A stretch of DNA of 20,000 nucleotides, from IMG/VR virus record IMGVR_UViG_3300046007_001549. The stretch is one strand, 5' to 3'. Under the pieces are notes generated by a model that saw nothing but the letters and a program-made list of their open reading frames with translations, did not search any database and was not told where the DNA came from. This document shows positions 4,106-19,343 of this stretch, piece after piece. Positions within the stretch are counted from its first letter, which is position 1; each line of letters starts with the position of its first letter. Origin of the DNA: an uncultured virus (IMG/VR IMGVR_UViG_3300046007_001549) (taxonomy: Duplodnaviria > Heunggongvirae > Uroviricota > Caudoviricetes). The translations under genes and the position numbers were made by a program.

Positions 4106-5680
4106 ATGGAATCACTAGCAGATCGTTTTAATCTGCTGCATGGACAGAGGCAATCTAAACTGACAATCGGACGGGCTTGTGCTTCATTGACAATCCCATC
4201 TCTTCTTCCCCCAGAAGGATGGACCGAAGACCAGCAACTGCCTCAGCCTCATTCATCAGTCGGTTCGCGTGGAACTACAGCATTGGCAAGTCGAATGCTG
4301 TCTGCTATGATTCCACTAAATGATACTCCCTTCTTTAAGTTTACCTTACGGAATGGTGCAGAACCCACTACTGAAATTCAGCAGTATCTAGAAACAATGA
4401 GCTATCAGGTCTTTAGAAAACTGATGGCTACTAATTTAAGAGAAACAACTTATCAAGTTCTCCAATCACTAATCGTTGTTGGAGATGCTTTGGTTCATGT
4501 TGAAGATGATTTTAAACTACGCACTTCTCGTCTGGATCATTATGTTATTCAGCGTACAGTAGAAGGTGATGTACAAGAAATTATTACTGTAGAGTATGAG
4601 CTTAAAGATCCCACGGTTGCGAGTTATCCAGCTTCAGTTCCTGTTTCTGAAAAGGCAGGATATGAAAAGGTCTACTGTCAGTACATGTACGACAAAGACA
4701 ACAAGCTATGGATGTACCGCAAGGAAGATTCTGATGGCGAAGTAATTGCAGAGGGACAGTACGAAGTACTTCCTGTTGCGGTTGTTCGTTGGTATGGAAT
4801 CCCCGGTGAGAACTATGGACGCTCTCACTGTGAAGATAACTTTGGTGATCTTCAGAGTTTAGATGCTTATACTAAGTGCCTTATTGATGGCATGGCAGCT
4901 AGCACAGCTTTCTGGATGGGACTAGATCCAAGTGGTATTACTGAGATAGATGATATCTCAGATCAGCCAAATGGTTCTTGGGTTCCTGCCCGATCACAAG
5001 ACATTGCTGTAATATCACCCAGTCAAACCATGAACCCACAGGTATCGTCAGCACAGGTAGCTGTGCAGACAATGCGACAGGAGTTAGGTAATTCATTCCT
5101 AATGACAGGCGCATCTCTACCTACTGGAGATCGTGTTACAGCCACAGCAGTACGAATGATCGGATCAGAACTAGAAACAATTCTAGGTGGCGCATTCAGC
5201 GCCATTGCCAGAGATCTTATGTCTCCAATCCTACGAAGATTCGTCTTCCTTATGATTGAGAATGAAGACTTAGACAAGAGAATGTATGAGCAGTTCTTTG
5301 ACAAGGATGGCACTCTTAGTGTTGAGATTGTCACAGGATTGCAGGCATTGTCCCGTGATACTGATCTTCAGCGACTACTCCAGATGGGTGAAATGGTTCG
5401 CAACCTACCACCAGAAGCACAGGCTGCATTTAAATGGAGCGAATACGCTAAGGCTTTAGTAACTGCATTAGGATTTGACTCACGCAATTGGGTTATCTCT
5501 GAGCAAGAAGCTATGGCTATGCAGCAACAGCAGCAGATGGCACAACAACAGCAAATGATGCAGCAGCAAATGATGCAACAGGCTGGCAATGTTGCTGGTC
5601 AAGCCGCTATGCAGGATGTGCAGCAAACAGGTGGGCAAGGTATTGCAGAAGTACTTGGCAACCTAGGAGTACAAGCATGA
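4106..5680 (+). CDS. Portal (head-to-tail connector, T7 gp8-like)
   Basis: LTIPSLLP, S.G.RG...LASRML, P..PFF, RWY.IPGE.YGRS, RVTAT.VR, LETILGG and EIVTGLQALSR motifs, 524 aa, Q/M-rich tail. Confidence 0.95.
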   Translation: MESLADRFNLLHGQRQSKLTIGRACASLTIPSLLPPEGWTEDQQLPQPHSSVGSRGTTALASRMLSAMIPLNDTPFFKFTLRNGAEPTTEIQQYLETMSYQVFRKLMATNLRETTYQVLQSLIVVGDALVHVEDDFKLRTSRLDHYVIQRTVEGDVQEIITVEYELKDPTVASYPASVPVSEKAGYEKVYCQYMYDKDNKLWMYRKEDSDGEVIAEGQYEVLPVAVVRWYGIPGENYGRSHCEDNFGDLQSLDAYTKCLIDGMAASTAFWMGLDPSGITEIDDISDQPNGSWVPARSQDIAVISPSQTMNPQVSSAQVAVQTMRQELGNSFLMTGASLPTGDRVTATAVRMIGSELETILGGAFSAIARDLMSPILRRFVFLMIENEDLDKRMYEQFFDKDGTLSVEIVTGLQALSRDTDLQRLLQMGEMVRNLPPEAQAAFKWSEYAKALVTALGFDSRNWVISEQEAMAMQQQQQMAQQQQMMQQQMMQQAGNVAGQAAMQDVQQTGGQGIAEVLGNLGVQA

Positions 5681-5982
5681 AGAAGCGATTAGATAAAAGC
5701 AAGATGGCTTGTAATCGACCACAAAAGTCTCCCAAGGCTGGCAAAAAGAAAGTCGTTAAGGCTTGTGCCAATGGTCAGGAAAAGATTATTCATTACGGAG
5801 CAACTGGCTACGGTCACAACTATAGTGCTGCTGCTCGTAAGTCTTTCCGTGCAAGACATGGATGCGATAAAGCCAAGAACAAACTAACCGCTAAGTATTG
5901 GGCTTGCAAGAATCTTTGGGCTGGTCCCGGTGGTTCAACTGCAAGCTGTCCCAAGGGACGCAAGTGCAAGAAAGGTAAGTAA
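5677..5982 (+). CDS. Lysine-rich, Cys-containing 101-aa protein with RKSFRARH.C...A.YW.C motif
   Basis: ATGA overlap with the portal stop and SD AGGAG. 22 K + 6 R against 3 acidic residues, 6 Cys. Resembles an uncharacterised small basic viral protein family (from recall, not searched). Confidence 0.85.
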   Translation: MKKRLDKSKMACNRPQKSPKAGKKKVVKACANGQEKIIHYGATGYGHNYSAAARKSFRARHGCDKAKNKLTAKYWACKNLWAGPGGSTASCPKGRKCKKGK

Positions 5983-6113
5983 TGCCTTTTAAATCACAAC
6001 AGCAACGCAAATATATGTTTGCTACCCATCCGAAGATGGCGAAGAAGTGGGCAGCTGAAACCCCAAAGGGTAAGAAGCTTCCCAAGTATGCCAAGAAAAA
6101 GAAAAAGAAGTAA
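5982..6113 (+). CDS. 43-aa lysine-rich protein MPFKSQQQRKYMFATHPKMAKKWAAETPKGKKLPKYAKKKKKK (absent from ORF track)
   Basis: TAATG coupling with the previous stop and SD AGAAAGGT. The MPFKS..Q...M.A.HP..A..W..ETP pattern is one I recall from uncharacterised phage proteins. Confidence 0.8.
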   Translation: MPFKSQQQRKYMFATHPKMAKKWAAETPKGKKLPKYAKKKKKK

Positions 6114-6208
6114 TGGCAAAGCAAACATTCAAATGTAACTGTGGCAAGACCACACGACTAACAGGTAAGGACGCTACTAAAGTAGTGAAACCCAAGAAAG
6201 GTAAATAA
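6113..6208 (+). CDS. 31-aa basic protein MAKQTFKCNCGKTTRLTGKDATKVVKPKKGK (absent from ORF track)
   Basis: TAATG coupling, fills the gap to the scaffold gene exactly, carries a CxCG knuckle. Confidence 0.6.
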   Translation: MAKQTFKCNCGKTTRLTGKDATKVVKPKKGK

Positions 6209-6211
6209 CAA

Positions 6212-7153
6212 ATGACAGATGAGACTCCAGAATTGGACATGCAGGAACAAGTCGAACAGACTGAGGCTGCGGTCAATGCGGAACAATCTCCAACTGCTAG
6301 TGAGCAGGATATTGTAACTGCGAGAGAACGAGCAGCCTTTGAGACTTATGTAAAATCTCAAGGTGTTGCTATTCCAGAAAACTTCAAGGATGTTGGATCA
6401 TGGTTCGACTCACTTAAAAATGCACAGAAAGCATATACACAGTCGCGTCAAGAAATCGCGGATCTTAAAAAGAAGTATGAGAAGTCAGGCGACAATCCAA
6501 ACTTCAAAGCTCCGACAGAAGATCCAAAGCCAGCAGCCAAAGAAGAAGAAGTAATCGCAGTCGATAAGCTGCAGATTCCTAAGCAACCAGAAAAGACAGA
6601 GCAAGCTCCCGTTGAGTACGCTGTTACTCAGGATGATTGGAAGTCTTGGACTGTTGAGTTTGCTACCAAGGGAGAACTGTCTGCTGAAACCAAGGAACAG
6701 ATCAAGCAAAAGACAAAGCTTCCTGATTATGTAATTGATGATTATATGACAGGTCAGAAAGCAAAGCTTGAGGTTGCCTATAAAAAGGCAGCAGATCTAA
6801 TTGGTGGTAATGACAAACTCAATAAGGTCTTTACTTGGGCTAGCAAGAATCTTTCTCAGACTGAGCAAGATGGAATTAACTCTGCACTAGCAACACCCAA
6901 TTGGGAAATTGCTTTGTTAGGACTAACGACTAAATACGAAAAGGCTAATGGAACTACAACTAAGACTAATGAGCCACCAGCAACAGGTAAGAAAGTTCCT
7001 GTATCTGCAACTCAGGTTCCAGCAACTGCTTATAAAACTAAGCGGGAATTCCAAGTCGAACGAAACAACCCACGCTTTATGACAGATGCCAAATATAGGG
7101 CAGCTGTTGAGAAGCGTATGTTAATGACGGACTTCACAAAACTAACTCCTTGA
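6212..7153 (+). CDS. Capsid scaffolding protein (T7 gp9-like)
   Basis: Acidic N-terminus, IPENFKD, GG......WA..NL and C-terminal NPRF..D..YR..V motifs, located between portal and capsid. Confidence 0.9.
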   Translation: MTDETPELDMQEQVEQTEAAVNAEQSPTASEQDIVTARERAAFETYVKSQGVAIPENFKDVGSWFDSLKNAQKAYTQSRQEIADLKKKYEKSGDNPNFKAPTEDPKPAAKEEEVIAVDKLQIPKQPEKTEQAPVEYAVTQDDWKSWTVEFATKGELSAETKEQIKQKTKLPDYVIDDYMTGQKAKLEVAYKKAADLIGGNDKLNKVFTWASKNLSQTEQDGINSALATPNWEIALLGLTTKYEKANGTTTKTNEPPATGKKVPVSATQVPATAYKTKREFQVERNNPRFMTDAKYRAAVEKRMLMTDFTKLTP

Positions 7154-7289
7154 GACAGGATTAGTTCTAATCTATTTTGTTATATGGATTAGCAAAACCC
7201 CCGGAAGGCAATGGTTGGCTTTCCATATAACAACTTAACTTAAAGACTCCAGAGGAATAATCTAATGGTTAAGCAATTTAATTGTCTCA
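7151..7289 (+). promoter_or_regulatory. Predicted structured RNA leader (multi-arm junction) upstream of the capsid gene
   Basis: Nested inverted repeats: TGAGACA 7151-57/TGTCTCA 7283-89; GATTA/TAATC 7159-72; perfect 12-bp TTGTTATATGGA 7177-88/TCCATATAACAA 7222-33; CTTAAC 7234-39/GTTAAG 7268-73. Confidence 0.65.
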
Positions 7290-7322
7290 TTTTTAACTCA
7301 TTCCTTTTTAGGAGAAAACACA

Positions 7323-8489
7323 ATGCCCGATAATTTAACAGCAGCTGATCTTGTAATGCGTACAGATGTAGCTGCAGCCACCACAGGTGGCGCTGCTGGA
7401 GCTAACAAGCTTTGGCTCCCACTTTGGTCTGGTGAAGTAATCAATGCTTACGATCACTACAATGTATTTGAGAATGTCATCACTGCCAAGACCCTCACCG
7501 GAGGTTTTTCTTGGGAATTCCCCGTCACCGGAACCATCGCTCTAAAGGCTGCATGGAACGCTGGTGAGGAACTCGTTGGTGGCGACTCCTCAAGCACCAC
7601 CTTCAAGGTAAACCTTGACCCACGCCCAATGGCTGCTCACTTTGAGACTGACAATGTAGACCTACTCATTACTCAGTGGGACTACCGCTCAGAGCTAGCT
7701 CGTCAGGCTGGTATGACTCTTGCTAACACCCGTGATACACAGGTTGCAGTATCCCTACTCGCTGCTTGCGCCGTAGGTCCACTCGCTTCTGATCCACGCG
7801 GTCTAACCAATGCTGAATTCCCACAGCCAGTTGAAGTTTCAACAGGCGCTCCAAGCGCGGCTGATGATTCAGTTGGTCTAAAGATTCTCAAGGCCATTGA
7901 AGATTACTTTGTATTCATGCAGGAGAACAACTATCCAGCAGCTAGTGTCTACTGCGTAGTAACTCCAAAGGTATTCCAAGTTATCCGCGCTCTCGGTATT
8001 ACCCGCGCTGGTGACACCAATGCCTTTGAGAAGGTTCCTCTGTTTGGTGGCGGTCAGGAGTACGGTGGTATCGGTGCTGCTCTCAGCATGGGCATGAACA
8101 GCCTCACTGATTCACTGGAGTACATGGGTTGCCGCATCATCAAGAGCAACCACCTACCAAAGACCAACCTTGGCTCCGCTTCAATCGGTGCTTCCAAGTA
8201 TAACCTCAACTGCTCTGCTATCAACCTACACGGTATGATCTTCCAGCCAGAAGCCGTTGCTGGTCTATCACTTATGGGCATGAAGGTTGACACCGTACAG
8301 GATGTACGACGCAACACTCAGTTCACCGTTGCTAGCATGCAGAAGGGTACAGGCGTTCTCCGTCCAGAACTATGTCAGGCACTAGTCGGCGCTGCCGCTG
8401 GTACTCTTGACGCTCGTTCTGAGCTACGCACTGCCCTCGGTGCTAACCTCACAAGCGGCTTCGCTGCAGAGTATGCAGTAACCGCGTAA
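7323..8489 (+). CDS. Major capsid protein (T7 gp10-like, HK97 fold)
   Basis: LWSGEV (FSGEV-like), G.S..FP..G, D.RSELARQAG..LA and G.GVLRPE motifs, SD AGGAG, codon bias of a highly expressed gene. Confidence 0.95.
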   Translation: MPDNLTAADLVMRTDVAAATTGGAAGANKLWLPLWSGEVINAYDHYNVFENVITAKTLTGGFSWEFPVTGTIALKAAWNAGEELVGGDSSSTTFKVNLDPRPMAAHFETDNVDLLITQWDYRSELARQAGMTLANTRDTQVAVSLLAACAVGPLASDPRGLTNAEFPQPVEVSTGAPSAADDSVGLKILKAIEDYFVFMQENNYPAASVYCVVTPKVFQVIRALGITRAGDTNAFEKVPLFGGGQEYGGIGAALSMGMNSLTDSLEYMGCRIIKSNHLPKTNLGSASIGASKYNLNCSAINLHGMIFQPEAVAGLSLMGMKVDTVQDVRRNTQFTVASMQKGTGVLRPELCQALVGAAAGTLDARSELRTALGANLTSGFAAEYAVTA

Positions 8490-8499
8490 TAGAAACTAC

Positions 8500-8558
8500 A
8501 TCACCTTTGCAAGAAAGGAGGATAACATTGTTTATTCTTTCTTAAGGAGGTGATCCAA
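8500..8558 (+). promoter_or_regulatory. Hairpin containing two SD motifs, a 5-codon minigene and an extended 16S 3'-end complement
   Basis: ATCACCTTT 8500-08 pairs with GGAGGTGAT 8546-54 (two G-U) and AAGAAAG 8511-17 pairs with CTTTCTT 8537-43. AGAAAGGAGG 8512-21, TTG-TTT-ATT-CTT-TCT-TAA 8528-45, TAAGGAGGTGATCCAA 8543-58. Confidence 0.6.
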
Positions 8559-8565
8559 TATCTAG

Positions 8566-8603
8566 CCCTCCGTCCCTTAAGTGGGACGGAGGGTTTTCTT
8601 TCT
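8566..8603 (+). terminator. Intrinsic terminator after the capsid gene (T-phi position)
   Basis: Perfect 11-bp stem CCCTCCGTCCC/GGGACGGAGGG, loop TTAAGT, followed by TTTTCTTTCT. Confidence 0.9.
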
Positions 8604-8617
8604 AAAAGGAGGCTACT

Positions 8618-9301
8618 ATGGGATTCATTACAAAACTACAAGCAGTTAATCAGATGCTGTTGGCCGCTGGTGAAAACCTAGTAGCTGACCTTGTTAATGA
8701 CAGCGGTGTCGATACAGGCATTGCTGAAACACTGCTAGATCAAATCTCTCTTGACTTTCAAATGAGAGGGATGGCAAACAACAAGTACATTAGAGAAGTA
8801 ATTCCTGATCCAATCTCACGCAAGATTTACCTACCTTATGGTAATGATGATGATGAGCAAGGAGTTATTTCTGCTGAGTTGGTTTCACTACATTATAATG
8901 AGAAGGGGCAAATCATTGTTGCCCGTATCAATTATGAGGGTAATAAACCTATTCTTTGGAATATCACGGATGATACTGGTATTTGGTCAACCACACCAAA
9001 GTATTATCTTGAAATGATTATGAAACTTCCTTGGGAACTTCTGGATACACCAGCACAAAGAGCTATTCTTGCCACAGCAATGCGGCATTATCAGGCTATT
9101 ACCCAAGGCGATCCTGCAACCGACCAGTTCCTAGCCCATCAAGAGGCTTTGTTTGGAGCTAAGGGTCGCGCTGCAGACATCAACGATAAGAAACGAAACA
9201 TCTTTGAATCAGGAGACTCTGCCGTTAAAGCAGCAGTCAGAAGAAATCCATATATCAACGACCCTAATAGGTTTAGATTCTGGAGAACAAGAGGTATCTA
9301 A
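8618..9301 (+). CDS. Tail tubular protein A (T7 gp11-like adaptor)
   Basis: T.L.AVN.ML.A.GE N-terminus, LPWE.L..PAQ motif, SD AAGGAGG, position after the capsid. Confidence 0.9.
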   Translation: MGFITKLQAVNQMLLAAGENLVADLVNDSGVDTGIAETLLDQISLDFQMRGMANNKYIREVIPDPISRKIYLPYGNDDDEQGVISAELVSLHYNEKGQIIVARINYEGNKPILWNITDDTGIWSTTPKYYLEMIMKLPWELLDTPAQRAILATAMRHYQAITQGDPATDQFLAHQEALFGAKGRAADINDKKRNIFESGDSAVKAAVRRNPYINDPNRFRFWRTRGI

Positions 9302-12300
9302 TGGCAATAAGAAGAACAAGCCCACGCGCTGGTCTGATAAACACCCGTTTACCAGTACCAACCATTAATAGTGTTGGTCGTAACGCACCAAACAAGAGAG
9401 CTGCTTATGAAGCACAGAACCTTGACAATTGTTTTGTATCATTAGAGCGAAACTTTGAAAAGCGTCCCGGTTTTGAAGTTGTACCACAGTACACAATTCC
9501 CGACATTACCGATTGGGATTTTAACCAGCCTCAAACAAGAGTGGATTTGTTCCCATTAGATGGATTAGTTGCTCTTAACCACGATCTATGGTACTACTGG
9601 CACAACATTAACGAAGAGACTAGGTTCTTGATCGTCGTAGATTACTCTGCACGAACCAATGAACACAATCTTTATTATGTATTTCAGTTACTTCCTAATG
9701 GAACATGGAAAGACCGAAGCCCCCAAGGTCAATCAGCTGATGCAATCAATGGAAGCTTTCCAGAAACCACAGTTCCTGCTAAGACCAGAGCTTATCTAAC
9801 CTTTGGATCTGATACTAGTGATCTAGGTACAGCAAAGACTGCTAAAGAATCCTTGCAAGCGGTATCATTAGGAACAAACATTATCATTCTAAACAAGAAT
9901 GTATATGCTGGTTTTTCTTCAGATGATGATGGCTTGTTATTTAATCTAGATGGCACTAAGGGAACCGAAGAAGATGTAGCTGGTAAGAAGGTTACTTATT
10001 ATTCATCAGCTCAGGTTATTCCAATCTATGCTAGTGGTTCGGATTACAAGACTAAAGAAGACGATGTGTTCCTTGGTTATAAGCCAGCGACTACTGCTGT
10101 TGGTGGTAGTATTAAATCTACTACAGTTTTCTCTGAGTCACCTCTTGTTGTTGACTTTGAACTGCAGCCAAGCCCTTCTGAAGTTTCTGGAACCAATCCA
10201 ATCTCTGCTATCTCTTCTACCTATAACGGATATAAGCTAGAGATTCCAGAGATTAATGCATCAGGAACTGTTCAGCAATACTTTGGAGATACAAAGATTG
10301 CAAGAGTTTTATGGACAGGCCAACTTCCACAGGATAACGCAACTATTGTTACTGCTCCAACTAGAGTTGATGCTGTTACTTATGAACTAGTTCCAACAGT
10401 TCATACTTCTTATGAGTTTGAATTAGGAACTAATGCTTCTACTACAGCTAACTTTTACCGTAACCAAACCATTGAAATAATGAATGGTTCTACTGTCGTT
10501 GGAACAGCTACAATCTATTCCTACAATAGTGTTACCAAAAAGATCAGAATTAAAAACTGGAGTGGTCCTAGTAATATTGTATCTGGAACTGCTTATCGTA
10601 TTAAAATTGTTACTACAATAACTTTTATGGGCCGGACTTCTGTACAAACTACTTATTATCATGGTAATATTCCTGCTACTCTTACTTACATTAACCCAAC
10701 AAACGATAAACCTTATAACCTAACTCCAGTTACTTACTCTGTAACTCTAGATTCAAGTGCTTCAAGCACCAATGATTTCTATAAGAACTATCAGCTTGAT
10801 GTGTTATTTGTAGCAACTCCCGGTTCTGGTTCTGTAATTAAATACACTGGTTCAACTAAGCAAGCTATCGTTACTGATTGGACAGGAAGCGCCCCATTAA
10901 ACGGTAATGCTGTTAACATATCAATTAAAAGCTATGCCTTCTCATTAAGTTCGACTGTCACAGCAAAGCATATTCCTGTTGAAGATTATAAATACTTCCA
11001 GAATTCTCTCGCTTATCTTGGACAAAGACTTAATGATGCAAGTGAAATCCGTCTTCCACCTGAAGTAGATGATTGGTACAACACCAATAGTAACGGCAGT
11101 AACAGCGTGGCTGATGTTTCAGCACAGCGCATGCTTGAATTGCTATATGATCCTTTCCATCCCTATGGAAACTACAATGGAAAGAATCTCGTTGGTGGTC
11201 GTGGTAAAGTTTATTACTGTCAGAACCCCTTCCTAAACCTAACAAGTGGATACTATCGTGTGATTTCATGGAGAGAAGACACACCAGCACAGTACTACAA
11301 CTTTACTCTACCTCCCAAGATCACTGCTACTGGTGTAGAAGCTAATAAGATTATTCCATTTGGCAGACCATATCTTCAAAAGATTCGTACTCCAGATAAG
11401 TGGTCATACATAGACCCCAATAGAATGCCTCAGAAGATTTCTCTACTGCTTGGCGCTAACTCTTTAGAGTGGTCTATCGGTCCTGTTCGCTGGACTCCAC
11501 GGCAGTCTGGTACTAATGATACCAATCCCGGTCCTTCTGTATTCAGAACGACAGATCGAAAGCAAATCAAGCAGACTCCTCTTACTAGCATCTGTGTATT
11601 TAAAGACAGACTATGGTTTGCGGCTGATGATGTTGCATTCTCTTCTCAAATTGGTAAGTACGAGAGCTTCTTTATTGAAGACCCTGCCAACATTATTGCT
11701 ACAGATCCTATTGATATCCGTGCTTCTTCAAATGCATTTGCTCAGATTACTCACATGACACCATTTGAAGACTATATCTTTATCAATACAAAAGCAAACA
11801 TTCAGTTCCAGCTCACAGCTGGCTCTAAGGATGCCAACGATCTTGTGCTTACACCCTTCAATGTCATGTTGTCTCCAACAACTTACTATGCTGCGGTGTC
11901 CTTTGTTGATCCTCAGACCATTGGATCACAGCTTTACTTCTTTGACCGCCGAAAACTATATCTATTTACAGGTAAGAACAACCTTGGATATAGTTCAGCA
12001 GTTGAGGTTTCAAGCCAAGCCCAAGACTATCTGCCTGAAAACTTTGGATTTGCCTGCACAGGGCCAGCTCAGAACACAATCTTTGTGACTGATGCTGATA
12101 ATGAAAACATGATTTATATGTACACGGTTCGCTTTAGTGGTGAGCGTGTAATCCAAAGTTCATTCTATCGCTATGTTCTGGATTCAGAGTCTCTAGTAAA
12201 CAGCATGCAAGTTTACAGTAACTACTTGTATGTCATTATTGCTAGAAACAATAAGGTTGTTATTGAGCGCACTCTACTTCAGAATGAAAAGAATGATGTA

Positions 12301-13377
12301 CCACGAATGGATCATATGTTTAAGATCAAACTTAACTCTGACATTGGTGGTGAAGAACTAAATGTAACTTATTCAGATAGTTCTAACATTAGTTATGTTG
12401 CTTTGAATCCAACCACAAGCAAGGTTCACAGCGCACAGGTCGAAGTGGAGCGTATCTTTACCGCAGATAGAGATGGCGATTCAACTATCATTACAGATTT
12501 CTTAAACGATCCTAATGTAAGCATTGCCGATAAAGCAGCTTTGTTTATCATTCCTAATGATCGTCTATTCTTTAATGAACTAGCAAAAGAAATAACCAGC
12601 ATTAATCTACCAGCTACTGGTGATGTGTATGACTTTGTTTACACTCCAATTGGTGGGCCAAATACTGGAATACAACAAACAATTAAAGTTCCCGGTCTAA
12701 GTAATGGTCAGTCCCTTACTTTACGCCGCTTGAATGAACCTAATGTAACTTACAATCCCGGTCTACATGAAACAACCTTTAGACTACCAGCAGCAAACTA
12801 TGGTGTTAACGACACCTTTAGGGTTGTTGTTGCTAAGCCTTGGGTAAACGACCCCAACTATCTTGCTCAAGAAGGACTACAGCCTGAAGATCTGGTCGGA
12901 ACAGCGTTCCCTCCTCTTGTATCTATCAGTTCAGATGGTAACTATCTGAATGTAGTCGTGCTAGGCAAGTATGATTTTGATGACAACTATGTTTATATCG
13001 GCAATCCATTCACAATGACTGTCGAATTAAGCCCCTTGTTTGTCCGAGATCAAAATGGCGGTATTGTAGATGGTGTACTTAAGTTACGAACAGGTGTCTT
13101 CCGGCATTTCAACACAGGTAATTATGATATTGTAGTTACTCATAGAGGTCGAAACCCATTAGTTTCTTCCTTTACTGCCATTAGACCAGATTTCACCCTT
13201 GCTGAAGATAGCCTTCCACTAGAACCCTATGAAGGCCAAGGAGAATTTGTTGCCAAGGTTTTTGGTAACTCAGATTCAACCAATATAAAGATTGTATCTG
13301 ACTACATTACTCCTGTAAACATCTCAACAATGGAATTCAAAGGTACATTCAAACAGAAATACTCTACAATTAATTAA
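9301..13377 (+). CDS. Tail tubular protein B (T7 gp12-like nozzle), enlarged by insertions
   Basis: NC...LE....KRPG N-terminus, W..R..G....NP.PS, FKDRLWF, DPIDI and YIG.PF.M.VELSP motifs. 1358 aa against about 800 aa for T7 gp12. Confidence 0.9.
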   Translation: MAIRRTSPRAGLINTRLPVPTINSVGRNAPNKRAAYEAQNLDNCFVSLERNFEKRPGFEVVPQYTIPDITDWDFNQPQTRVDLFPLDGLVALNHDLWYYWHNINEETRFLIVVDYSARTNEHNLYYVFQLLPNGTWKDRSPQGQSADAINGSFPETTVPAKTRAYLTFGSDTSDLGTAKTAKESLQAVSLGTNIIILNKNVYAGFSSDDDGLLFNLDGTKGTEEDVAGKKVTYYSSAQVIPIYASGSDYKTKEDDVFLGYKPATTAVGGSIKSTTVFSESPLVVDFELQPSPSEVSGTNPISAISSTYNGYKLEIPEINASGTVQQYFGDTKIARVLWTGQLPQDNATIVTAPTRVDAVTYELVPTVHTSYEFELGTNASTTANFYRNQTIEIMNGSTVVGTATIYSYNSVTKKIRIKNWSGPSNIVSGTAYRIKIVTTITFMGRTSVQTTYYHGNIPATLTYINPTNDKPYNLTPVTYSVTLDSSASSTNDFYKNYQLDVLFVATPGSGSVIKYTGSTKQAIVTDWTGSAPLNGNAVNISIKSYAFSLSSTVTAKHIPVEDYKYFQNSLAYLGQRLNDASEIRLPPEVDDWYNTNSNGSNSVADVSAQRMLELLYDPFHPYGNYNGKNLVGGRGKVYYCQNPFLNLTSGYYRVISWREDTPAQYYNFTLPPKITATGVEANKIIPFGRPYLQKIRTPDKWSYIDPNRMPQKISLLLGANSLEWSIGPVRWTPRQSGTNDTNPGPSVFRTTDRKQIKQTPLTSICVFKDRLWFAADDVAFSSQIGKYESFFIEDPANIIATDPIDIRASSNAFAQITHMTPFEDYIFINTKANIQFQLTAGSKDANDLVLTPFNVMLSPTTYYAAVSFVDPQTIGSQLYFFDRRKLYLFTGKNNLGYSSAVEVSSQAQDYLPENFGFACTGPAQNTIFVTDADNENMIYMYTVRFSGERVIQSSFYRYVLDSESLVNSMQVYSNYLYVIIARNNKVVIERTLLQNEKNDVPRMDHMFKIKLNSDIGGEELNVTYSDSSNISYVALNPTTSKVHSAQVEVERIFTADRDGDSTIITDFLNDPNVSIADKAALFIIPNDRLFFNELAKEITSINLPATGDVYDFVYTPIGGPNTGIQQTIKVPGLSNGQSLTLRRLNEPNVTYNPGLHETTFRLPAANYGVNDTFRVVVAKPWVNDPNYLAQEGLQPEDLVGTAFPPLVSISSDGNYLNVVVLGKYDFDDNYVYIGNPFTMTVELSPLFVRDQNGGIVDGVLKLRTGVFRHFNTGNYDIVVTHRGRNPLVSSFTAIRPDFTLAEDSLPLEPYEGQGEFVAKVFGNSDSTNIKIVSDYITPVNISTMEFKGTFKQKYSTIN
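10150..10930 (+). repeat. Three degenerate ~60-aa beta-domain repeats inserted in tail tubular B
   Basis: L....S.....Y.(G/N)..(L/I)(E/D).......G.(V/I)..Y.G.TK.A.V..W.G pattern at about 10150-10350, 10411-10605 and 10735-10930. Confidence 0.7.
12361..12752 (+). repeat. 381-nt in-frame insertion bounded by direct repeat AATGTAACTTA, paralogous to the fiber N-terminus
   Basis: Repeat copies at 12361-71 and 12742-52. The encoded segment aligns with 13509-13814 at about 55/102 identities (hand alignment). Confidence 0.85.
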
Positions 13378-13391
13378 TAAATGGAGACACC

Positions 13392-16300
13392 ATGAGTTAT
13401 TCCAACATAACTGTTGTCACTTCGCAAGGTACTTATGGCTATTCTGTAGGAGCTACCACCTTCAATCCAATTCTTTATAACACATTGGATTTGATTCCCG
13501 GTATTCCTCACAATGCCCAATTAGAAGTTGAGCGAATCTTTTCTATTGATAGAAACGGCGTAACCGCCACGATTCCTGACTTCCTAAACGACACCAATGT
13601 ATCCGTAGTTGATAAACAGAATGTGTTTATTATTCCAAGTGATCGTATTACTTATGATACTACTGGAAACCGAATCGTAAATGTAAACCTACCCGCCTCT
13701 GGACCTGATGTATATAACTTTAGTTATGTACCAATCAGTGGACCAAATGCTGGTACTACTCAGACAATTGCTGTACCACAACTACGAGAAGGCGATAATA
13801 TTATTGTTCGCCGTAAGACTGTCAGTAATACTTCTTTAGTTCTTTGGACTCCCGGTAGCAAGCTAACAACTGCTCAGCTAAACCTGAACACAACACAGCT
13901 TCTATTCCTAGTTCAAGAAATTCTAAACAAGGTAACTATTGTCAGCGTCAGCACCGAACAGATTCTAGACAATGCAATTACTAGTCCTAAGATTCTAAAC
14001 AAGGCAGTAACTTTTGCCAAACTTCAGGATCTTAGTGGTCCACTAAAGCTTCTTGGTTCAGGTTCTGATCCTATTAACTTCCGCGATGTACGCGAGATGT
14101 CCGTAGGTCCGGGCTTTGATGTAACTGGTAACACTATTGATGTAAAGCCACTACCAGCTGGACAGAGAAACGATATTGAAGTCGTATCTCCACTTACAGA
14201 CTGGCGTATTAATCCCAATGCTGTTACTTATAGTAAGATGCAGGATGTCACCGCAGCCTCACGCCTTATTGGTCGTGGCTCTGCAGCTGGCTCAGGCGAC
14301 CCACAGGAACTTACTGTAGGCTCCAGCCTATCTATGGTTGGTACTCAGCTCAATGTAACTACGCCACTTACAGATGGTAACAAAGGCGACCTAACCGTTG
14401 GAAGCAATGGTACGACATTTACAATTAATACTGGTGCTGTAATTACTGCAGATCTAGCAGACCATGCTGTAACTTATGCTAAGATGCAGCTATCACTTAC
14501 TGGTAATCGTGTACTAGGCACAACAACCGCAGATAGTCATATCTCAGAAGTACAAATTAATGCTGATATGATTGCAACTGCGGCAGTAACCAATGCTAAG
14601 TTAGCAAATGGTTCTGTAAGTTCTTCAAATCTTCAGGCAGGGTCTGTCCTAACTAATGCTATTAACAACAACGCTGTAACTTACGATAAGCTACAGACAG
14701 TCGTAACAGCAAACCGTGTTCTTGGTTCTACCGCAGCAAACGGAACAGTATCTGAAGTACAGGTAAACACTAATATGGTTGTGGATAATGCCGTATCTTT
14801 CCCCAAGATGCAGCAGATTCCAAGCAATACATTATTAGGAAGAGCAGCATCTGGTACAGGCAATGTAGAAACCATTGCTATTACTGCTGCTGGTAGAGAG
14901 CTAATTGACGAAAACAGCGTAGCTGATATGCGTCAGTATCTCCAGTTAGGGACCGCAGCTTTAGAAGCTGTAGCTTTCTTTGCACCAGCTGTTCACAGCC
15001 ACGGCTCCATCAATAGTGCAGGACAGATTGGTACAACACCAAACCTTCCTCTCATTACTAGTTCTAATGGATTGATTTCTACTGGTACATTCGGCACAAC
15101 TGTAAGTACTTTCTGTCAGGGTAATGATGCTCGTCTAAGCGATGCTCGTACACCACTTGCCCATATCCATCCAATCTCAGATGTAACTAACTTACAGACT
15201 GAGCTAAATGCTAAGGCTCTTGTTGGACATACCCATGTTATTGCAGATGTAGCAAACCTACAGACAAACCTTGATAATAAGGCTGCTATTGCACATACCC
15301 ATACAATCGCTGAAGTAACAAATCTTCAGTCATCATTAGATGGTAAAGCAGCAACAAGCCATACGCATACTATCTCTCAGGTTACTAACCTACAGACAGA
15401 GCTAGATAATAAAGCCGCTGTAAGCCACACCCATACTATTGCCAATGTAACTGGTTTACAGACTGCACTAGATGGCAAGGCAGCTAGCAGCCATACCCAC
15501 GCAATGAGTGATATCACTAATCTTGATACCACCCTTGCTGGCAAGGCAAATACCACACATACCCACGCTATTGGTGATGTCACTGGTCTTCAAACCGCTC
15601 TAGACGCTAAGATTGATGACTCTCAAATCAGTGCGTTTGGTCTAACTCTTATTGATGATACAACCGCTGCTGCAGCCAGAACAACTTTAGAGCTAGGCTC
15701 TGCCGCTACACAGGCTTCTTCAGCCTTTGCAGCAGCTAGCCATACCCACACATTAGCAGCTATTACAGATGCCGGAACAGCAGCATCTAAATTTGCTCCT
15801 GCTATTGGAGTAAACGCAACCACTACTCAAGTTGTTATGGGTGATGATACTCGTTTAACAAATGCTAGAACTCCAACTGCTCACACACATGTTCTTGCTG
15901 ATATTACAGATGCTGGAACAGCAGCAGCTAAGTTTGCTCCAGCTGTTGGTGTAAATGCCACAACAACTCAGGTTGTAATGGGTGATGATACCCGTCTAAC
16001 AAATGCACGAACACCCACAGCTCATATCCATGTAATTGGTGATATCACTAATTTACAAACAACACTAGATGGCAAGGCAGCAACAAGCCATACACACTCA
16101 ACTACTGATATTACTTCAGGTACACTATCAGTTGCAAGAGGTGGTACTGGTGTTTCAACAACACCAACGGCTGGTCAGATTCTTATTGGTAATAACACAG
16201 GATTTACTTTAGCTAATATTCTTGGTGGTTCTAATATTGCAATTAGCAATACTCCCGGTGGTATTACAATTAGTCAGGTTGGTGAGCCAGTAGCACCTTC

Positions 16301-19300
16301 TGCAATTCTTGCGGATGGTACTTATGGTGATATTACAATTGCTGGCAATACTTGGACAGTTGTAAACAATGCTATTAGCGGTGCTAAGATTGCAAACGAT
16401 GCTGTCACATTTGGTAAAATTCAGAATATTAATACCAATACCGTACTAGGTAGAGCGACTGCAGGAACTGGCGATGTCGAAGAAATCACAGTAACCGCTG
16501 CTGGTCGTGCCTTGCTGGATGATGCTGATGCCGCCGCACAGAGGACTACCCTTGGTGCTGCTGCGGCCTCACATACTCATGCAATCAGTGATGTCACAAA
16601 TCTACAAGCATCACTAGATGCTAAGGTAGATGATTCGCAGATTTCTGCGTTTGCACTGACTTTACTTGATGATGCATCTGCTGGAACAGCTAGAGCAACT
16701 CTTGGTTTAGGTTCTTCTGCTACTCTAAATATTTCTGCACTAGGAGATGCTGCTAGTGGTGAGGTTGTTACTGGTTCCGATAGCCGTCTAACTAACGCTA
16801 GAACTCCAGTTGCACATACCCACGCAATTAGTGATGTTACAAACCTACAGGCTTCGCTTGATGCTAAGGTTGATGATTCCCAAATCAGTAGCTTTGCTCT
16901 AACTATTTTAGATGATACAGACGCTGCTAGCATGAGAGTAACTCTTGGTCTTGGTACAGCTGCTACTCAGGCTTCTACAGCCTTTGCTGCAGCTAGCCAT
17001 ACTCATACCATTTCACAGGTTACAAACCTACAGACAAGTCTTGATGGCAAGGCCAACACAGTACATAGCCATGCTATCTCTGATGTTACCAACCTTCAGA
17101 CAACCCTTGATGGTAAGACCAATGTTGGTCACACTCATGGTATTTCAAATGTAACTAACCTACAGACAGAACTAAACAACAAGGCCGCGCTATCCCATAC
17201 TCATGCTATCTCAGATGTAACTAATCTACAGACAGCTCTGGATGGTAAAGCAGCCAGTAGTCACACACATGTTATTAATGATGTAACTGGTCTACAGACT
17301 GCCCTCAACGGCAAAGTCAATACAAGTTCTGTAAGCACCTTTGGTGCAAGTCTTATTGATGATGCTACTGCAGCTGATGCCAGAACAACTCTTGGCTTAG
17401 GTACTGCAGCTACTCAGCCATCCACAGCTTTTGCTTCTGCTTCTCACACCCATAGCACTTCTGGTTATGATAATAACTCAGTAACCTATGCAAAGATTCA
17501 GAAGGTAGCCACAGCCAATCGGTTGCTTGGTTCTACTACAGCCAATGCTGATGTTGCTGAAGTACAGGTTGCCACAGACATGGTTGCAAACTTGGCAATC
17601 ACTGCTGGTAAGATTGCTGCTAGTGCTGTCGAAACCGCTAAGATTAATAACCTTGCCGTAACAAGTGATAAACTTGCAGACGGTGCTGTAACAAGTAATA
17701 AACTTGCAAACGGTGTAGTAACCTATAACAAGTTACAAACCGTTGCTACAGCCAACCGTGTACTGGGTTCTACAGTTGCTGGTGGTATTGTTGCTGAAGT
17801 TCAGATCAATGCCAACATGCTTGCTGATGGTCTAGTCACTACAGCTAAAATTGCTGATGGCAATGTCACAGCAGCTAAGCTAGCTTCTGGAGCAGCCGTA
17901 GCAAACATTGGTAACGGAAACATCACAACCGCATTGCTTGCGGATGCCAATGTAACCACAGCCAAGATTGCGAACCTTGCTATTACCACAGGGCTACTAG
18001 CCAATAATGCAGTAACCTATGGTAAGATGCAGGCTGTCGCTACCGCAAACAGACTCCTTGGTTCTACCACAGCTGGCGGTGCAGTTAGCGAAGTACAGGT
18101 TGCTACAGATATGGTTGTTGACTCTGCAATTACCGCAGATAAGTTAGCTACTAATGCCGTAACAAATGCTAAGATTGCCAGTAATGCTGTAACTACAGCT
18201 AAGATTGCTGATGGCAATGTAACACTTGCTAAGCTTCCACTAAGTACTACTGCTAACCGTGTACTTGGTACAACAACCGCTGGTTCTGCTTATACCGAAG
18301 TTCAGATTCAGACCAATATGATTGCCGATGGTGCAGTAACTGCAGCTAAGCTAGGTACACTCAGCATTGGAAACAGTCAGCTTCTTGACGATGCTGTCTC
18401 AACCAGTAAGATTGTAAACCTTGCGGTCACTGGTGCTAAGCTTGCAGACAATGCAGTAACCGATGCCAAGCTAAGAACAGGTGCAGCAACCTCCGTAATC
18501 GGTCGGTCTGCTAACACCGTAGGTAATGTTGCTGATATTGTTGCTTCTGTTGATGGACAAGTTCTCCATCGTACAGGCGGTACACTACAATTTGGTACAC
18601 TAGGTACTGGAAGTATTTCTGATGGTGCTATTACTCCTGCTAAGATTGCTAACATTGCTGCTAATCGTGTACTTGGTACAACATCAGGGACCGTAGAAGC
18701 TGTTCAGGTTTCTACAAACATGATTGCTGATGGAGCAGTAACTGCTGCTAAAACAAATTTTAAAGTTAAAAAAGTTACACAAGTTTTAACTGCTAGTTCT
18801 GGTACATGGACTGTTCCTAATAATATAACAAATATTACAGTTACGGTTTTTGGTGGAGGCGGTGGCGGTAGTCGCGGCGATCAAACTAACGGATTTCCAG
18901 TCTATCAACTTCCCGGTAAAAATGGTGGTTCTGGTGGCTTTGGTATTGTACAACTATCAGTAATACCCGGAAACAGTTATTCTTATACCATTGGTAGTGG
19001 CGGCACAGGTTCAAATTCAGGTACTGGTACTAATGGAGGAAGTACAACTTTCTTAGGTTTAACAGCAACAGGAGGGCTTGGTGCGTACGGCAGCGGTTCT
19101 TTTTCAATCGGATCTTTACCTTCTGGTGTAACTTTAGATCTAAATTTAACTTTATTTAGTAGTGCACCTAATACAGATATAGTCATACCAAATGCTCCTT
19201 CTGGTACTGCTCCTTCTACTTTTTCTCTAAGCAGCCTTTATCCACCCGGAGTTGGTGGTGCTGCTGAAAGTGGGCGGGATGCAAATAATGCCAGAGGTGG

Positions 19301-19343
19301 TATGGGTGGCGCTATTTGCATTGAGTATTTTGTAATAGAATAA
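13392..19343 (+). CDS. Long tail fiber (T7 gp17-type N-terminal anchor, repetitive shaft, glycine-rich C-terminal domain)
   Basis: IVRRKT....V.WTPGS.LT..QLN....QLLF.VQE anchor signature, AVTxAK and HTH repeats, and C-terminal SGTWTVP...ITVTVFGGGGGG glycine-rich domain. Confidence 0.92.
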   Translation: MSYSNITVVTSQGTYGYSVGATTFNPILYNTLDLIPGIPHNAQLEVERIFSIDRNGVTATIPDFLNDTNVSVVDKQNVFIIPSDRITYDTTGNRIVNVNLPASGPDVYNFSYVPISGPNAGTTQTIAVPQLREGDNIIVRRKTVSNTSLVLWTPGSKLTTAQLNLNTTQLLFLVQEILNKVTIVSVSTEQILDNAITSPKILNKAVTFAKLQDLSGPLKLLGSGSDPINFRDVREMSVGPGFDVTGNTIDVKPLPAGQRNDIEVVSPLTDWRINPNAVTYSKMQDVTAASRLIGRGSAAGSGDPQELTVGSSLSMVGTQLNVTTPLTDGNKGDLTVGSNGTTFTINTGAVITADLADHAVTYAKMQLSLTGNRVLGTTTADSHISEVQINADMIATAAVTNAKLANGSVSSSNLQAGSVLTNAINNNAVTYDKLQTVVTANRVLGSTAANGTVSEVQVNTNMVVDNAVSFPKMQQIPSNTLLGRAASGTGNVETIAITAAGRELIDENSVADMRQYLQLGTAALEAVAFFAPAVHSHGSINSAGQIGTTPNLPLITSSNGLISTGTFGTTVSTFCQGNDARLSDARTPLAHIHPISDVTNLQTELNAKALVGHTHVIADVANLQTNLDNKAAIAHTHTIAEVTNLQSSLDGKAATSHTHTISQVTNLQTELDNKAAVSHTHTIANVTGLQTALDGKAASSHTHAMSDITNLDTTLAGKANTTHTHAIGDVTGLQTALDAKIDDSQISAFGLTLIDDTTAAAARTTLELGSAATQASSAFAAASHTHTLAAITDAGTAASKFAPAIGVNATTTQVVMGDDTRLTNARTPTAHTHVLADITDAGTAAAKFAPAVGVNATTTQVVMGDDTRLTNARTPTAHIHVIGDITNLQTTLDGKAATSHTHSTTDITSGTLSVARGGTGVSTTPTAGQILIGNNTGFTLANILGGSNIAISNTPGGITISQVGEPVAPSAILADGTYGDITIAGNTWTVVNNAISGAKIANDAVTFGKIQNINTNTVLGRATAGTGDVEEITVTAAGRALLDDADAAAQRTTLGAAAASHTHAISDVTNLQASLDAKVDDSQISAFALTLLDDASAGTARATLGLGSSATLNISALGDAASGEVVTGSDSRLTNARTPVAHTHAISDVTNLQASLDAKVDDSQISSFALTILDDTDAASMRVTLGLGTAATQASTAFAAASHTHTISQVTNLQTSLDGKANTVHSHAISDVTNLQTTLDGKTNVGHTHGISNVTNLQTELNNKAALSHTHAISDVTNLQTALDGKAASSHTHVINDVTGLQTALNGKVNTSSVSTFGASLIDDATAADARTTLGLGTAATQPSTAFASASHTHSTSGYDNNSVTYAKIQKVATANRLLGSTTANADVAEVQVATDMVANLAITAGKIAASAVETAKINNLAVTSDKLADGAVTSNKLANGVVTYNKLQTVATANRVLGSTVAGGIVAEVQINANMLADGLVTTAKIADGNVTAAKLASGAAVANIGNGNITTALLADANVTTAKIANLAITTGLLANNAVTYGKMQAVATANRLLGSTTAGGAVSEVQVATDMVVDSAITADKLATNAVTNAKIASNAVTTAKIADGNVTLAKLPLSTTANRVLGTTTAGSAYTEVQIQTNMIADGAVTAAKLGTLSIGNSQLLDDAVSTSKIVNLAVTGAKLADNAVTDAKLRTGAATSVIGRSANTVGNVADIVASVDGQVLHRTGGTLQFGTLGTGSISDGAITPAKIANIAANRVLGTTSGTVEAVQVSTNMIADGAVTAAKTNFKVKKVTQVLTASSGTWTVPNNITNITVTVFGGGGGGSRGDQTNGFPVYQLPGKNGGSGGFGIVQLSVIPGNSYSYTIGSGGTGSNSGTGTNGGSTTFLGLTATGGLGAYGSGSFSIGSLPSGVTLDLNLTLFSSAPNTDIVIPNAPSGTAPSTFSLSSLYPPGVGGAAESGRDANNARGGMGGAICIEYFVIE
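14994..17453 (+). repeat. Coding repeats: 22-aa HxH units (SHTHxISxVTNLQxxLDGKA) and interspersed AARTTLGLG and DxRLTNARTP modules
   Basis: 66-nt periodic arrays at about 15160-15610 and 16990-17320. 20 HxH motifs counted (12 + 8). Confidence 0.9.

Follow-up and report, generated by a model that had tools for sequence, protein, structure and literature searches.

In the T-phi region of phage T7, the capsid gene is followed by a terminator and by gene 11, and RNase III sites of the T7 type consist of about two helical turns of stem with an internal loop. To our knowledge, neither an extended Shine-Dalgarno (SD) sequence without a start codon nor an AUCU word is known from T7. A strong start-less SD, STAB-SD, has been described in the 5' untranslated region of cryIIIA of Bacillus thuringiensis (Agaisse and Lereclus 1996, cited in PMC3997798). 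According to the available part of PMC3997798, a ribosome roadblock that alters RNA stability has been proposed for STAB-SD, and start-less strong SDs stabilise the downstream RNA in Bacilli. Extended SDs with the non-canonical start codons AUU and AUA are reported for infC, cvfC1, ccpN and citZ of Staphylococcus aureus in the accessible text of PMC13009471. In translational coupling of the rplK-rplA type, translation up to a stop codon melts the structure over a downstream SD; in E. coli, unwinding is the favoured route, ahead of re-initiation by the same ribosome (PMC7538156, part available). The CreT toxins of Acinetobacter are small RNAs with an SD, a mini-ORF and a hairpin whose action is independent of the peptide (PMC10097628, part available). 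The small RNA CC2171 of Caulobacter (Rfam RF01867) is a 159-nt multi-stem RNA with the 5' consensus GAAAGGAGGUGAUCCAGUGUCUC.

The window (the whole 20,000-nucleotide stretch analysed here) contains the late region of an uncultured T7-like phage, as judged from the list of open reading frames and PHROG profiles. The genes include exonuclease, dUTPase, ribonucleotide reductase, head-tail adaptor, scaffold, major capsid, gp11-like, gp12-like and tail fibre. The major capsid protein gene (7323..8489, + strand) matches PHROG 267 (major head, E 5.6e-30), and its stop codon TAA (8487-8489) opens the region of the element. The gp11-like gene (8618-9301, + strand) matches PHROG 446 (tail protein, E 7.4e-20), is similar to tail tubular protein A and has its own ribosome-binding site (RBS), AAGGAGG, which together with the ATG occupies 8606..8620 (+ strand). 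The closest cultured capsid match shows 28.9% identity. The window capsid was not found among 401 genomes of one guessed host phylum, and a 16S gene was not found in five MAG-linked genomes. A T7-type RNA polymerase is encoded in 5/5 near-complete relatives of 62-66 kb; in the nearest record (63% complete), the core described below is present once and the polymerase was not found in that fragment.

SD-like motifs, a minigene, an anti-16S stretch and a terminator are all present where the initial annotation had placed them, between the capsid and gp11-like genes. SD1 (AGAAAGGAGG, 8512..8521, + strand) is separated by 6 nt from the TTG of the mini-ORF TTG...TAA (8528..8545, + strand; MFILS*) that it would load, and the stop codon of this mini-ORF abuts the extended SD. 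The anti-16S stretch TAAGGAGGTGATCCAA (8543-8558, + strand) is indeed an exact 16-nt complement of positions 1527-1542 of E. coli 16S rRNA (MG1655), and a 14-mer of it occurs once in the window. The conserved extended SD core GGAGGTGATC (8546..8555, + strand) is the complement of positions 1530-1539. ATG, GTG and TTG are absent at normal spacing, in agreement with the claim of a start-less SD, and ATA (8558) and ATC (8560) are present instead. The latter belongs to an invariant ATCTA (8560..8564, + strand) located 3-5 nt past the core, which reads ATC-TAG in the window lineage. An intrinsic T-phi-like terminator follows (8564..8603, + strand; stem 8564-8595, apex CCC-TTAAGT-GGG, U tract). The putative gating hairpin (8500..8554, + strand) pairs a 5' arm (8500-8508) with 8546-8554 and an upper stem (8511-8519) with 8535-8543. 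The long hairpin that had been proposed is reproduced as a predicted fold of 9 bp, a 2x2 GC/AA loop, 9 bp, a 1x2 loop and 4 bp, with a minimum free energy (MFE) of -21.3 kcal/mol and z of -4.5 (0/200 shuffles as good).

On the + strand of the window, no other site matches the anti-SD as strongly as the element (-22.0 kcal/mol; next best -13.4); the gp11 RBS reaches -11.6 kcal/mol and the capsid RBS, which is weak beside this capsid 3' element, -7.3 kcal/mol. The duplex of the extended SD with the E. coli 16S tail is calculated at about -21.8 to -22.0 kcal/mol, and freeing the SD from the hairpin at a cost of about 12.8 kcal/mol. The order capsid, terminator, gp11 is that of T7, and the stem of 22 bp with 2x2 and 1x2 internal loops, carried on the late transcript, has the size of a T7-type RNase III site. 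No Rfam family reaches its own cut-off at the element. The PyrR family (33 versus 54 bits) was rejected, the score reflecting the hairpin and terminator. Contigs from four RNA sequencing runs were compared with the window, and none of them extends over 8458-8605, which speaks neither for nor against the element.

Searches with gp11 and capsid yielded 159 loci, among which a given contig may count twice; 147 sequences, the window included, contain both genes and give 73 distinct capsid-gp11 spacers. The core GGAGGUGAUC is kept in 58 of these spacers, as GGAGGTGATC in 53, GGGGGTGATC in four and GGAGGTGGTC in one. The five non-exact cores carry an A-to-G change facing U in 16S rRNA, which preserves a G-U pair, and no other variants occur. 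ATCTA follows the core in 58/58 spacers, at offsets of 3, 4 and 5 nt in 13, 32 and 13 of them, respectively, with the terminator next, and this invariance spans capsids about 45-100% identical to the query. The CAA that ends the 16-mer is found in 4/58 spacers and its TAA in 5/58, and the selected part is therefore the 10-nt core. The full 16-nt E. coli-type match (4/58) is not supported as an essential part, and neither are the double SD (19/58) and the ATCACCT arm (4/58); this arm, which had been taken for a mimic of the anti-SD, is simply the pairing partner of the SD. Because they are not conserved, the 16-nt match, the ATCACCT arm and the MFILS peptide are regarded as incidental.

The initial annotation had named a lack of conservation of the anti-16S stretch or of the pairing in relatives among the points that would count against its proposal. 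The core is retained as above, and in 42 distinct 5' parts the SD is predicted to be paired with a mean P of 0.86, within a hairpin whose sequence differs between lineages. These results support the interpretation of this locus as a conserved functional RNA element. In 14 lineage representatives, the predicted fold is more stable than controls in which only the 5' part was shuffled (z -1.6 to -4.4). The partner strand of the hairpin swaps C and U between lineages while the SD strand is fixed, which indicates an outside partner for the SD. Two-sided compensatory changes were found by RNAalifold in 0/16 pairs (10 sequences of one lineage), and the upper stems align poorly across lineages. AUCU is predicted to be mostly unpaired in this clade (mean P 0.38).

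A loadable mini-ORF is present in 42/42 distinct 5' parts. It is putatively loaded either at an ATG that lies no more than 10 nt from the capsid stop (giving 14-17 codons) or from an internal SD with TTG (giving 5-8 codons), and some 5' parts combine the two in one frame; SD1 with TTG is lineage-specific (19/58 spacers), and other lineages use the ATG beside the capsid stop. The mini-ORF stop lies 0-3 nt before GGAGG in 41/42 of these 5' parts and inside the SD in the remaining one (L085). All three remainders modulo 3 occur for the distance from start to SD, and the stop tracks this distance in four registers (0-3 nt); in view of the variable spacing, read-through across the mini-ORF stop was rejected. 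Ten of 11 lineage representatives pass a stop-position test, with shuffle P of 0.03-0.15 for nine and 0.54 for the short frame of the window; these trials are not independent, as the lineages are related. Some of the ATGs can also be taken for tandem stops (TAA-TGA). The peptides have nothing in common between lineages, and selection therefore appears to act on translation as far as the SD. The minigene of the initial annotation thus stands as a frame whose stop tracks the SD but not as a peptide, since MFILS is not conserved and the peptides are unrelated. The frame opened by ATC comprises one codon in the window and six codons in 39/42 5' parts and has no constant frame relation to gp11. A phage promoter was rejected for this region (core single-copy in 4/5 genomes, spacer variable), as was a sigma-70 promoter (-35 box TTGACA in one lineage only, without a -10 box).

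Fifteen of the 73 spacers, one of them from a distant outgroup, lack the core and keep only a terminator, and the T-phi-like terminator also occurs in some element-less relatives (L028, L032, L058, L059 and L066). A quick capsid tree of 70 rows, with three sequences left out for short capsids, places seven changes of presence or absence of the element, at least six of them on well-supported branches. It follows that the element is accessory, with several losses or exchanges in its history. In spacers L043, L044 and L045, the element is absent and a remnant, CCCTTAAGTGGG or CCTTAAATGG, precedes a different terminator with a CTAACGG loop, which suggests that the terminator was replaced after loss of the element. 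Near-identical spacers on separate capsid branches (L012 and L075 versus L052, L053 and L054) suggest spacer exchange by recombination.

Viral contigs were also scanned for AAGGAGGTGATCCA, a search blind to the downstream bases, which gave at least 111 distinct sites. AUCU follows AAGGAGGUGAUCCA at offsets of 2-6 in 28/111 viral sites among the matches listed, whereas 2.36 are expected (p 4e-22), and these 28 listed sites represent 27 unrelated contexts. A control motif ending in GATAAA is followed by AUCU in 1/111 sites. A normal start with an ORF is found at 26/111 GAUCC-type sites (among the matches listed) versus 75/111 control sites; AUCU goes with the GAUCC extension and with the loss of a normal start. 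ATCA, ATCC and ATCG are not enriched (2, 1 and 2 among the matches listed versus about 2-3 expected), whereas GTCT is (8 versus 0.7 among the matches listed, in part ordinary Met-Ser starts). The fourth base thus matters as much as the codon, since AUCU and GUCU are enriched and AUCA, AUCC and AUCG are not. A simple optimisation of anti-SD pairing was rejected as an explanation of AUCU, as the better-pairing ACCU is not enriched (1 versus 1.95 expected, among the matches listed).

Outside the T7-like clade, 80 unrelated non-coding sites with core and ATCT were compared. The stop codon of a long ORF ends at -1 to 3 nt in 32/80 and at 4-12 nt in 6/80. The core is followed by C in 60/80, and conservation stops at GAUC. 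A hairpin begins within 6 nt past AUCU in 69/80 (MFE folds; z < -2 in only 13/80), and many unrelated sites lack an adjoining terminator. Pairing of the SD with upstream sequence is seen in 13/80, so the gating hairpin is not general, and the ATC frame has a median of eight codons. Among 93 ATCTA sites, chance coding matches included, 51 have no adjacent stop. In a strict set of 35 sites, each beside the stop of a long ORF, a pyrimidine precedes ATCT in 33. The upstream genes of this set include six holins, two hemolysin-labelled genes, two endolysins and one gene each for a neck protein and a minor head protein, and most of the remainder have no known function or no assignment. The unit also occurs in the cultured phages SM1 of Streptococcus, BCE1 of Bacillus (whose core has one mismatch) and YPHTV-1 of Halomonas, at or just after a stop codon within the head cluster, and in BCE1 and YPHTV-1 it lies upstream of scaffold or portal genes. 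Of 120 matches sampled from cellular genomes, 107 fall within open frames and are apparently chance hits, and the unit therefore looks phage-linked in this sample; four of the 13 non-coding cellular matches follow a long-ORF stop. The element of the window is a putatively gated form of a widespread late-mRNA unit of phages, composed of a stop codon, 0-3 nt, GGAGGUGAUC(C), 2-5 nt, (Y)AUCU and a hairpin.

Two further features were seen among the unrelated sites. After AUCU, many strict sites (for example L165, L192, L232, L235, L272 and L362) have a 3-bp stem (CCC/GGG, CGG/CCG, CGT/ACG or CGA/TCG) with UUA, UGA or UAA behind it. The stem seems to covary and may be a second conserved part of the unit. 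A subfamily comprising L529, L575, L580, L593 and L607 has the core after a short hairpin, a terminator next and no adjacent stop codon, and in most members the core lies in a CCGG...CCGG mini-stem.

The element resembles STAB-SD in being a strong SD (-21.8 kcal/mol duplex) without an associated start codon. It differs in position, lying 3' of a stop codon and before a terminator, within a hairpin with a mini-ORF, and it extends to GAUC and has the invariant AUCU. With respect to the genes, it is 3' of capsid and 5' of the terminator, and upstream of gp11 only on read-through RNA. STAB-SD would presumably have to be accessible without prior translation, whereas the SD of the element is predicted to be paired. 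Since this accessibility is lacking and AUCU is added, the element is not filed as a STAB-SD, and it would act like one only if the following reading holds.

The element may tentatively be explained as a translation-gated, non-productive docking site for 30S subunits that acts as a roadblock on late RNA, a reading that is favoured here and is given somewhat less than an even chance. Complementarity to 16S rRNA, conservation of the core, sequestration of the SD in the predicted fold, tracking of the SD by the stop codon and the lack of a conserved product are evident in the sequences compared. A ribosome translating the mini-ORF (from SD1 and UUG here, from the AUG beside the capsid stop elsewhere) would melt the hairpin. 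A 30S subunit, the same or a free one, would then pair at least 10 bases with the core through the 16S tail, and AUCU would land in the E/P-site region, giving a non-productive, long-lived complex. The parked subunit would form a roadblock, and the fate of the late RNA would follow active translation, as with a switchable STAB-SD. Candidate affected RNAs are the end of the capsid mRNA, a short SD-to-terminator piece and the read-through gp11-gp12 message; the terminator directly after the element in the window is a point against a roadblock. Coupling by unwinding (PMC7538156, part available) fits a mini-ORF that opens the hairpin, and re-initiation by the same ribosome is disfavoured. The element differs from such coupling in that a dedicated mini-ORF would do the unwinding and the exposed SD leads to no gene. 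The idea of a start-less 30S dock, already contained in the initial annotation, fits the conserved core and the paired SD; AUCUA and the occurrence in unrelated phages had been missed there.

A possible but unlikely alternative is that the extended SD places AUC in the P site as a near-cognate start, with a stop-coupled, IF3-sensitive minigene of 1-6 codons in which initiation itself is the signal. AUC lies at P-site spacing, at an offset of 3-5 in 58/58 spacers, and CC2171 carries GUG-UCU in the corresponding region; the infC gene of Myxococcus xanthus starts with AUC. The AUC is located 4-5 nt past the core, slightly beyond normal starts (1-4 nt). As in the extended SDs that direct AUU and AUA starts in S. 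aureus (PMC13009471, part available), the pairing reaches the start-proximal AU of the 16S tail and a near-cognate codon stands at longer spacing. Those codons open real proteins, whereas the element has no conserved ORF downstream and requires the fourth U. This fixed U is unexplained by a start at AUC (AUCU 28, AUCA, AUCC and AUCG 2, 1 and 2 among the matches listed), and the product differs (one versus six codons) with no fixed frame relative to gp11. An excess of start-stop minigenes at AUC was not seen, the base after AUCUA being C in 54/103 sites.

It is also unlikely that RNase III-like cleavage or trimming frees a high-copy RNA of about 55-60 nt, from SD to terminator, that holds 30S subunits and dampens host or late translation, possibly as a clamp on the 790 loop. 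The idea is attractive because AUCU complements AGAU at positions 790-793 of 16S rRNA, the site of IF3C and bridge B2b. An oligonucleotide against the 790 loop blocks subunit joining, and G1530 and A1531 affect IF3 function. The 790 region is described as the IF3C and bridge B2b site in the accessible text of PMC3130014. In the window, UAUCUAG could pair over 7 bp at the 790 loop (-4.9 kcal/mol); AUCUA is invariant in 58/58 spacers, and AUCUAAUCC, a 9-nt complement of 785-793, is found in 3/93 other sites and in YPHTV-1. Most sites, however, allow only 4-5 bp at this loop (C after AUCU in 21/35 and before it in 8/35), AGAU occurs at six sites in 16S rRNA, and the four AUCUAAUCC sites have additional flanking sequence in common and may represent a single subfamily. 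A ribosome trap would also come at the expense of late translation by the phage itself.

Two small RNAs offer precedents for a released form. CC2171 is a Northern-validated sRNA (10.1101/2022.01.24.477521, part available), and in its Rfam model the 5' end lies some 10 nt ahead of the same SD core. It shares with the element this core, RUCU at the same offset and a 3' hairpin, and the window sequence matches its 5' motif GGAGGUGAUCC-N-RUCU; it differs in its 159-nt multi-stem structure and in having GUG before UCU. The window scores 21.8 bits (E 0.55) against the CC2171 model, below the gathering threshold of 75. As an orphan sRNA, CC2171 explains nothing yet about the element, and no statement on its translation was found in PMC4117421. 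Full-length CC2171-like RNAs were seen on two viral contigs, L329 (167-323) and L337 (29-197), with 45 and 52 bits, below the cut-off; each has a GUG-UCU frame of 14-16 codons, and that of L329 is next to a tRNA. The CreT toxins indicate that SD-bearing RNAs can poison initiation and resemble the element in being small RNAs with an SD, a mini-ORF, a hairpin and peptide-independent action (PMC10097628, part available). CreT needs AUG, GUG or UUG, none of which follows the conserved SD of the element at normal spacing, it is made as a separate CRISPR-repressed transcript, and its toxicity has been demonstrated. Membership in CreT is ruled out, as the conserved SD has no canonical start, and the available part of 10.1101/2023.03.10.532045 adds nothing to this comparison. 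No cas genes were found among the 15 window ORFs scanned against PHROGs.

A broader version combines two 30S contacts, the extended SD with the 16S 3' tail and (U)AUCU(A) with the 790 loop, armed by translation of the mini-ORF in the T7-like clade. The element would then be an RNA mimic of initiation-blocking antibiotics by which phages of several phyla hold or ration ribosomes at late stages of infection, with CC2171 as a cellular relative; this proposal is distinctly unlikely.

It is improbable that a ribosome docked at the SD and AUCU covers the 5' arm of the terminator and so adjusts the level of read-through to the tail genes. AUCUA and the terminator stem are contiguous in 58/58 spacers, and at the 69/80 unrelated sites mentioned above a hairpin likewise begins within 6 nt of AUCU in MFE folds (z < -2 in 13/80). 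In E. coli, ribosomes near terminators suppress them when transcription is by the host RNA polymerase (PMC4824070, part available). Many unrelated sites, however, have no adjoining terminator, and the same terminator occurs without the element. T7-type RNA polymerase runs far ahead of ribosomes, and since it is encoded in 5/5 relatives (not found in the 63%-complete nearest record), the suggestion of the initial annotation that the element tunes read-through is weakened.

A protein or nuclease that reads AUCU or a GGAGGUG/YAUCU(CC) mini-hairpin, with the 16S match being secondary, has an equally small probability. The pyrimidine before AUCU in 33/35 strict sites and the frequent C or U after it are as expected for pairing back on GGAGGUG, and the lack of enrichment of the better-pairing ACCU (1 versus 1.95 among the matches listed) implies a sequence-specific word. 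In the T7-like clade, however, A follows AUCU in 58/58 spacers and AUCU is mostly unpaired, and the stop adjacency, frame tracking and 16S-tail extension are left unexplained. A relic RBS of a lost gene, a chance match or a gp10B-like -1 frameshift end is very improbable: presence is patchy and in 44/58 spacers an open -1 frame runs from within the capsid gene to the stop, but the core is invariant across capsids about 45-100% identical and recurs in 27 unrelated contexts for 28 listed sites, 14/58 spacers use another frame, and an XXXYYYZ slippery site was found in none of the 44 open-frame spacers.

The favoured docking site is apparently a real, conserved and uncatalogued ribosome-docking RNA unit of phages, provided here with a translation-opened gate. 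The unit is not described in the literature searched, mainly open papers, and PMC5737381 (224 motifs) or other catalogues of phage motifs may list it. About a quarter (28/111) of the viral AAGGAGGUGAUCCA sites among the matches listed would belong to this one uncatalogued unit. Its carriers are phages of Bacillota, of Gammaproteobacteria and of uncultured freshwater hosts, and the genes that it follows belong to the capsid, to lysis and to the head cluster. Should it park ribosomes, phages would have a new level at which to control the fate of late RNA or the translation of the host. With this unit, the behaviour of a 30S subunit on a maximal SD that lacks a start codon can be tested directly, and it provides a clue to what the orphan sRNA CC2171 does. 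The unit can be tested now because cultured phages carry it. The T7-like form, with its mini-ORF, hairpin and two loading routes, would amount to a built-in switch and could be a portable part for translation-dependent RNA stability.

Several other features of the window were noted. The 172-nt spacer between scaffold and capsid (7150-7322) is the likely site of the capsid promoter and leader. Between portal and scaffold, two small lysine-rich ORFs of 43 and 31 aa (5982-6113 and 6113-6208) overlap at TAATG; both (5982-6208) fall below the cut-off of the ORF list. The stretch 5677-5982 is likewise very basic. The gp12-like protein (9301-13377) has 1358 aa compared with 793 positions in the family profile, which implies several hundred inserted residues. 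Directly after gp12, where the internal virion genes stand in T7, the window has a tail fibre-like protein of 1983 aa (13392-19343) made of arrays of 66-nt and 30-nt repeats.
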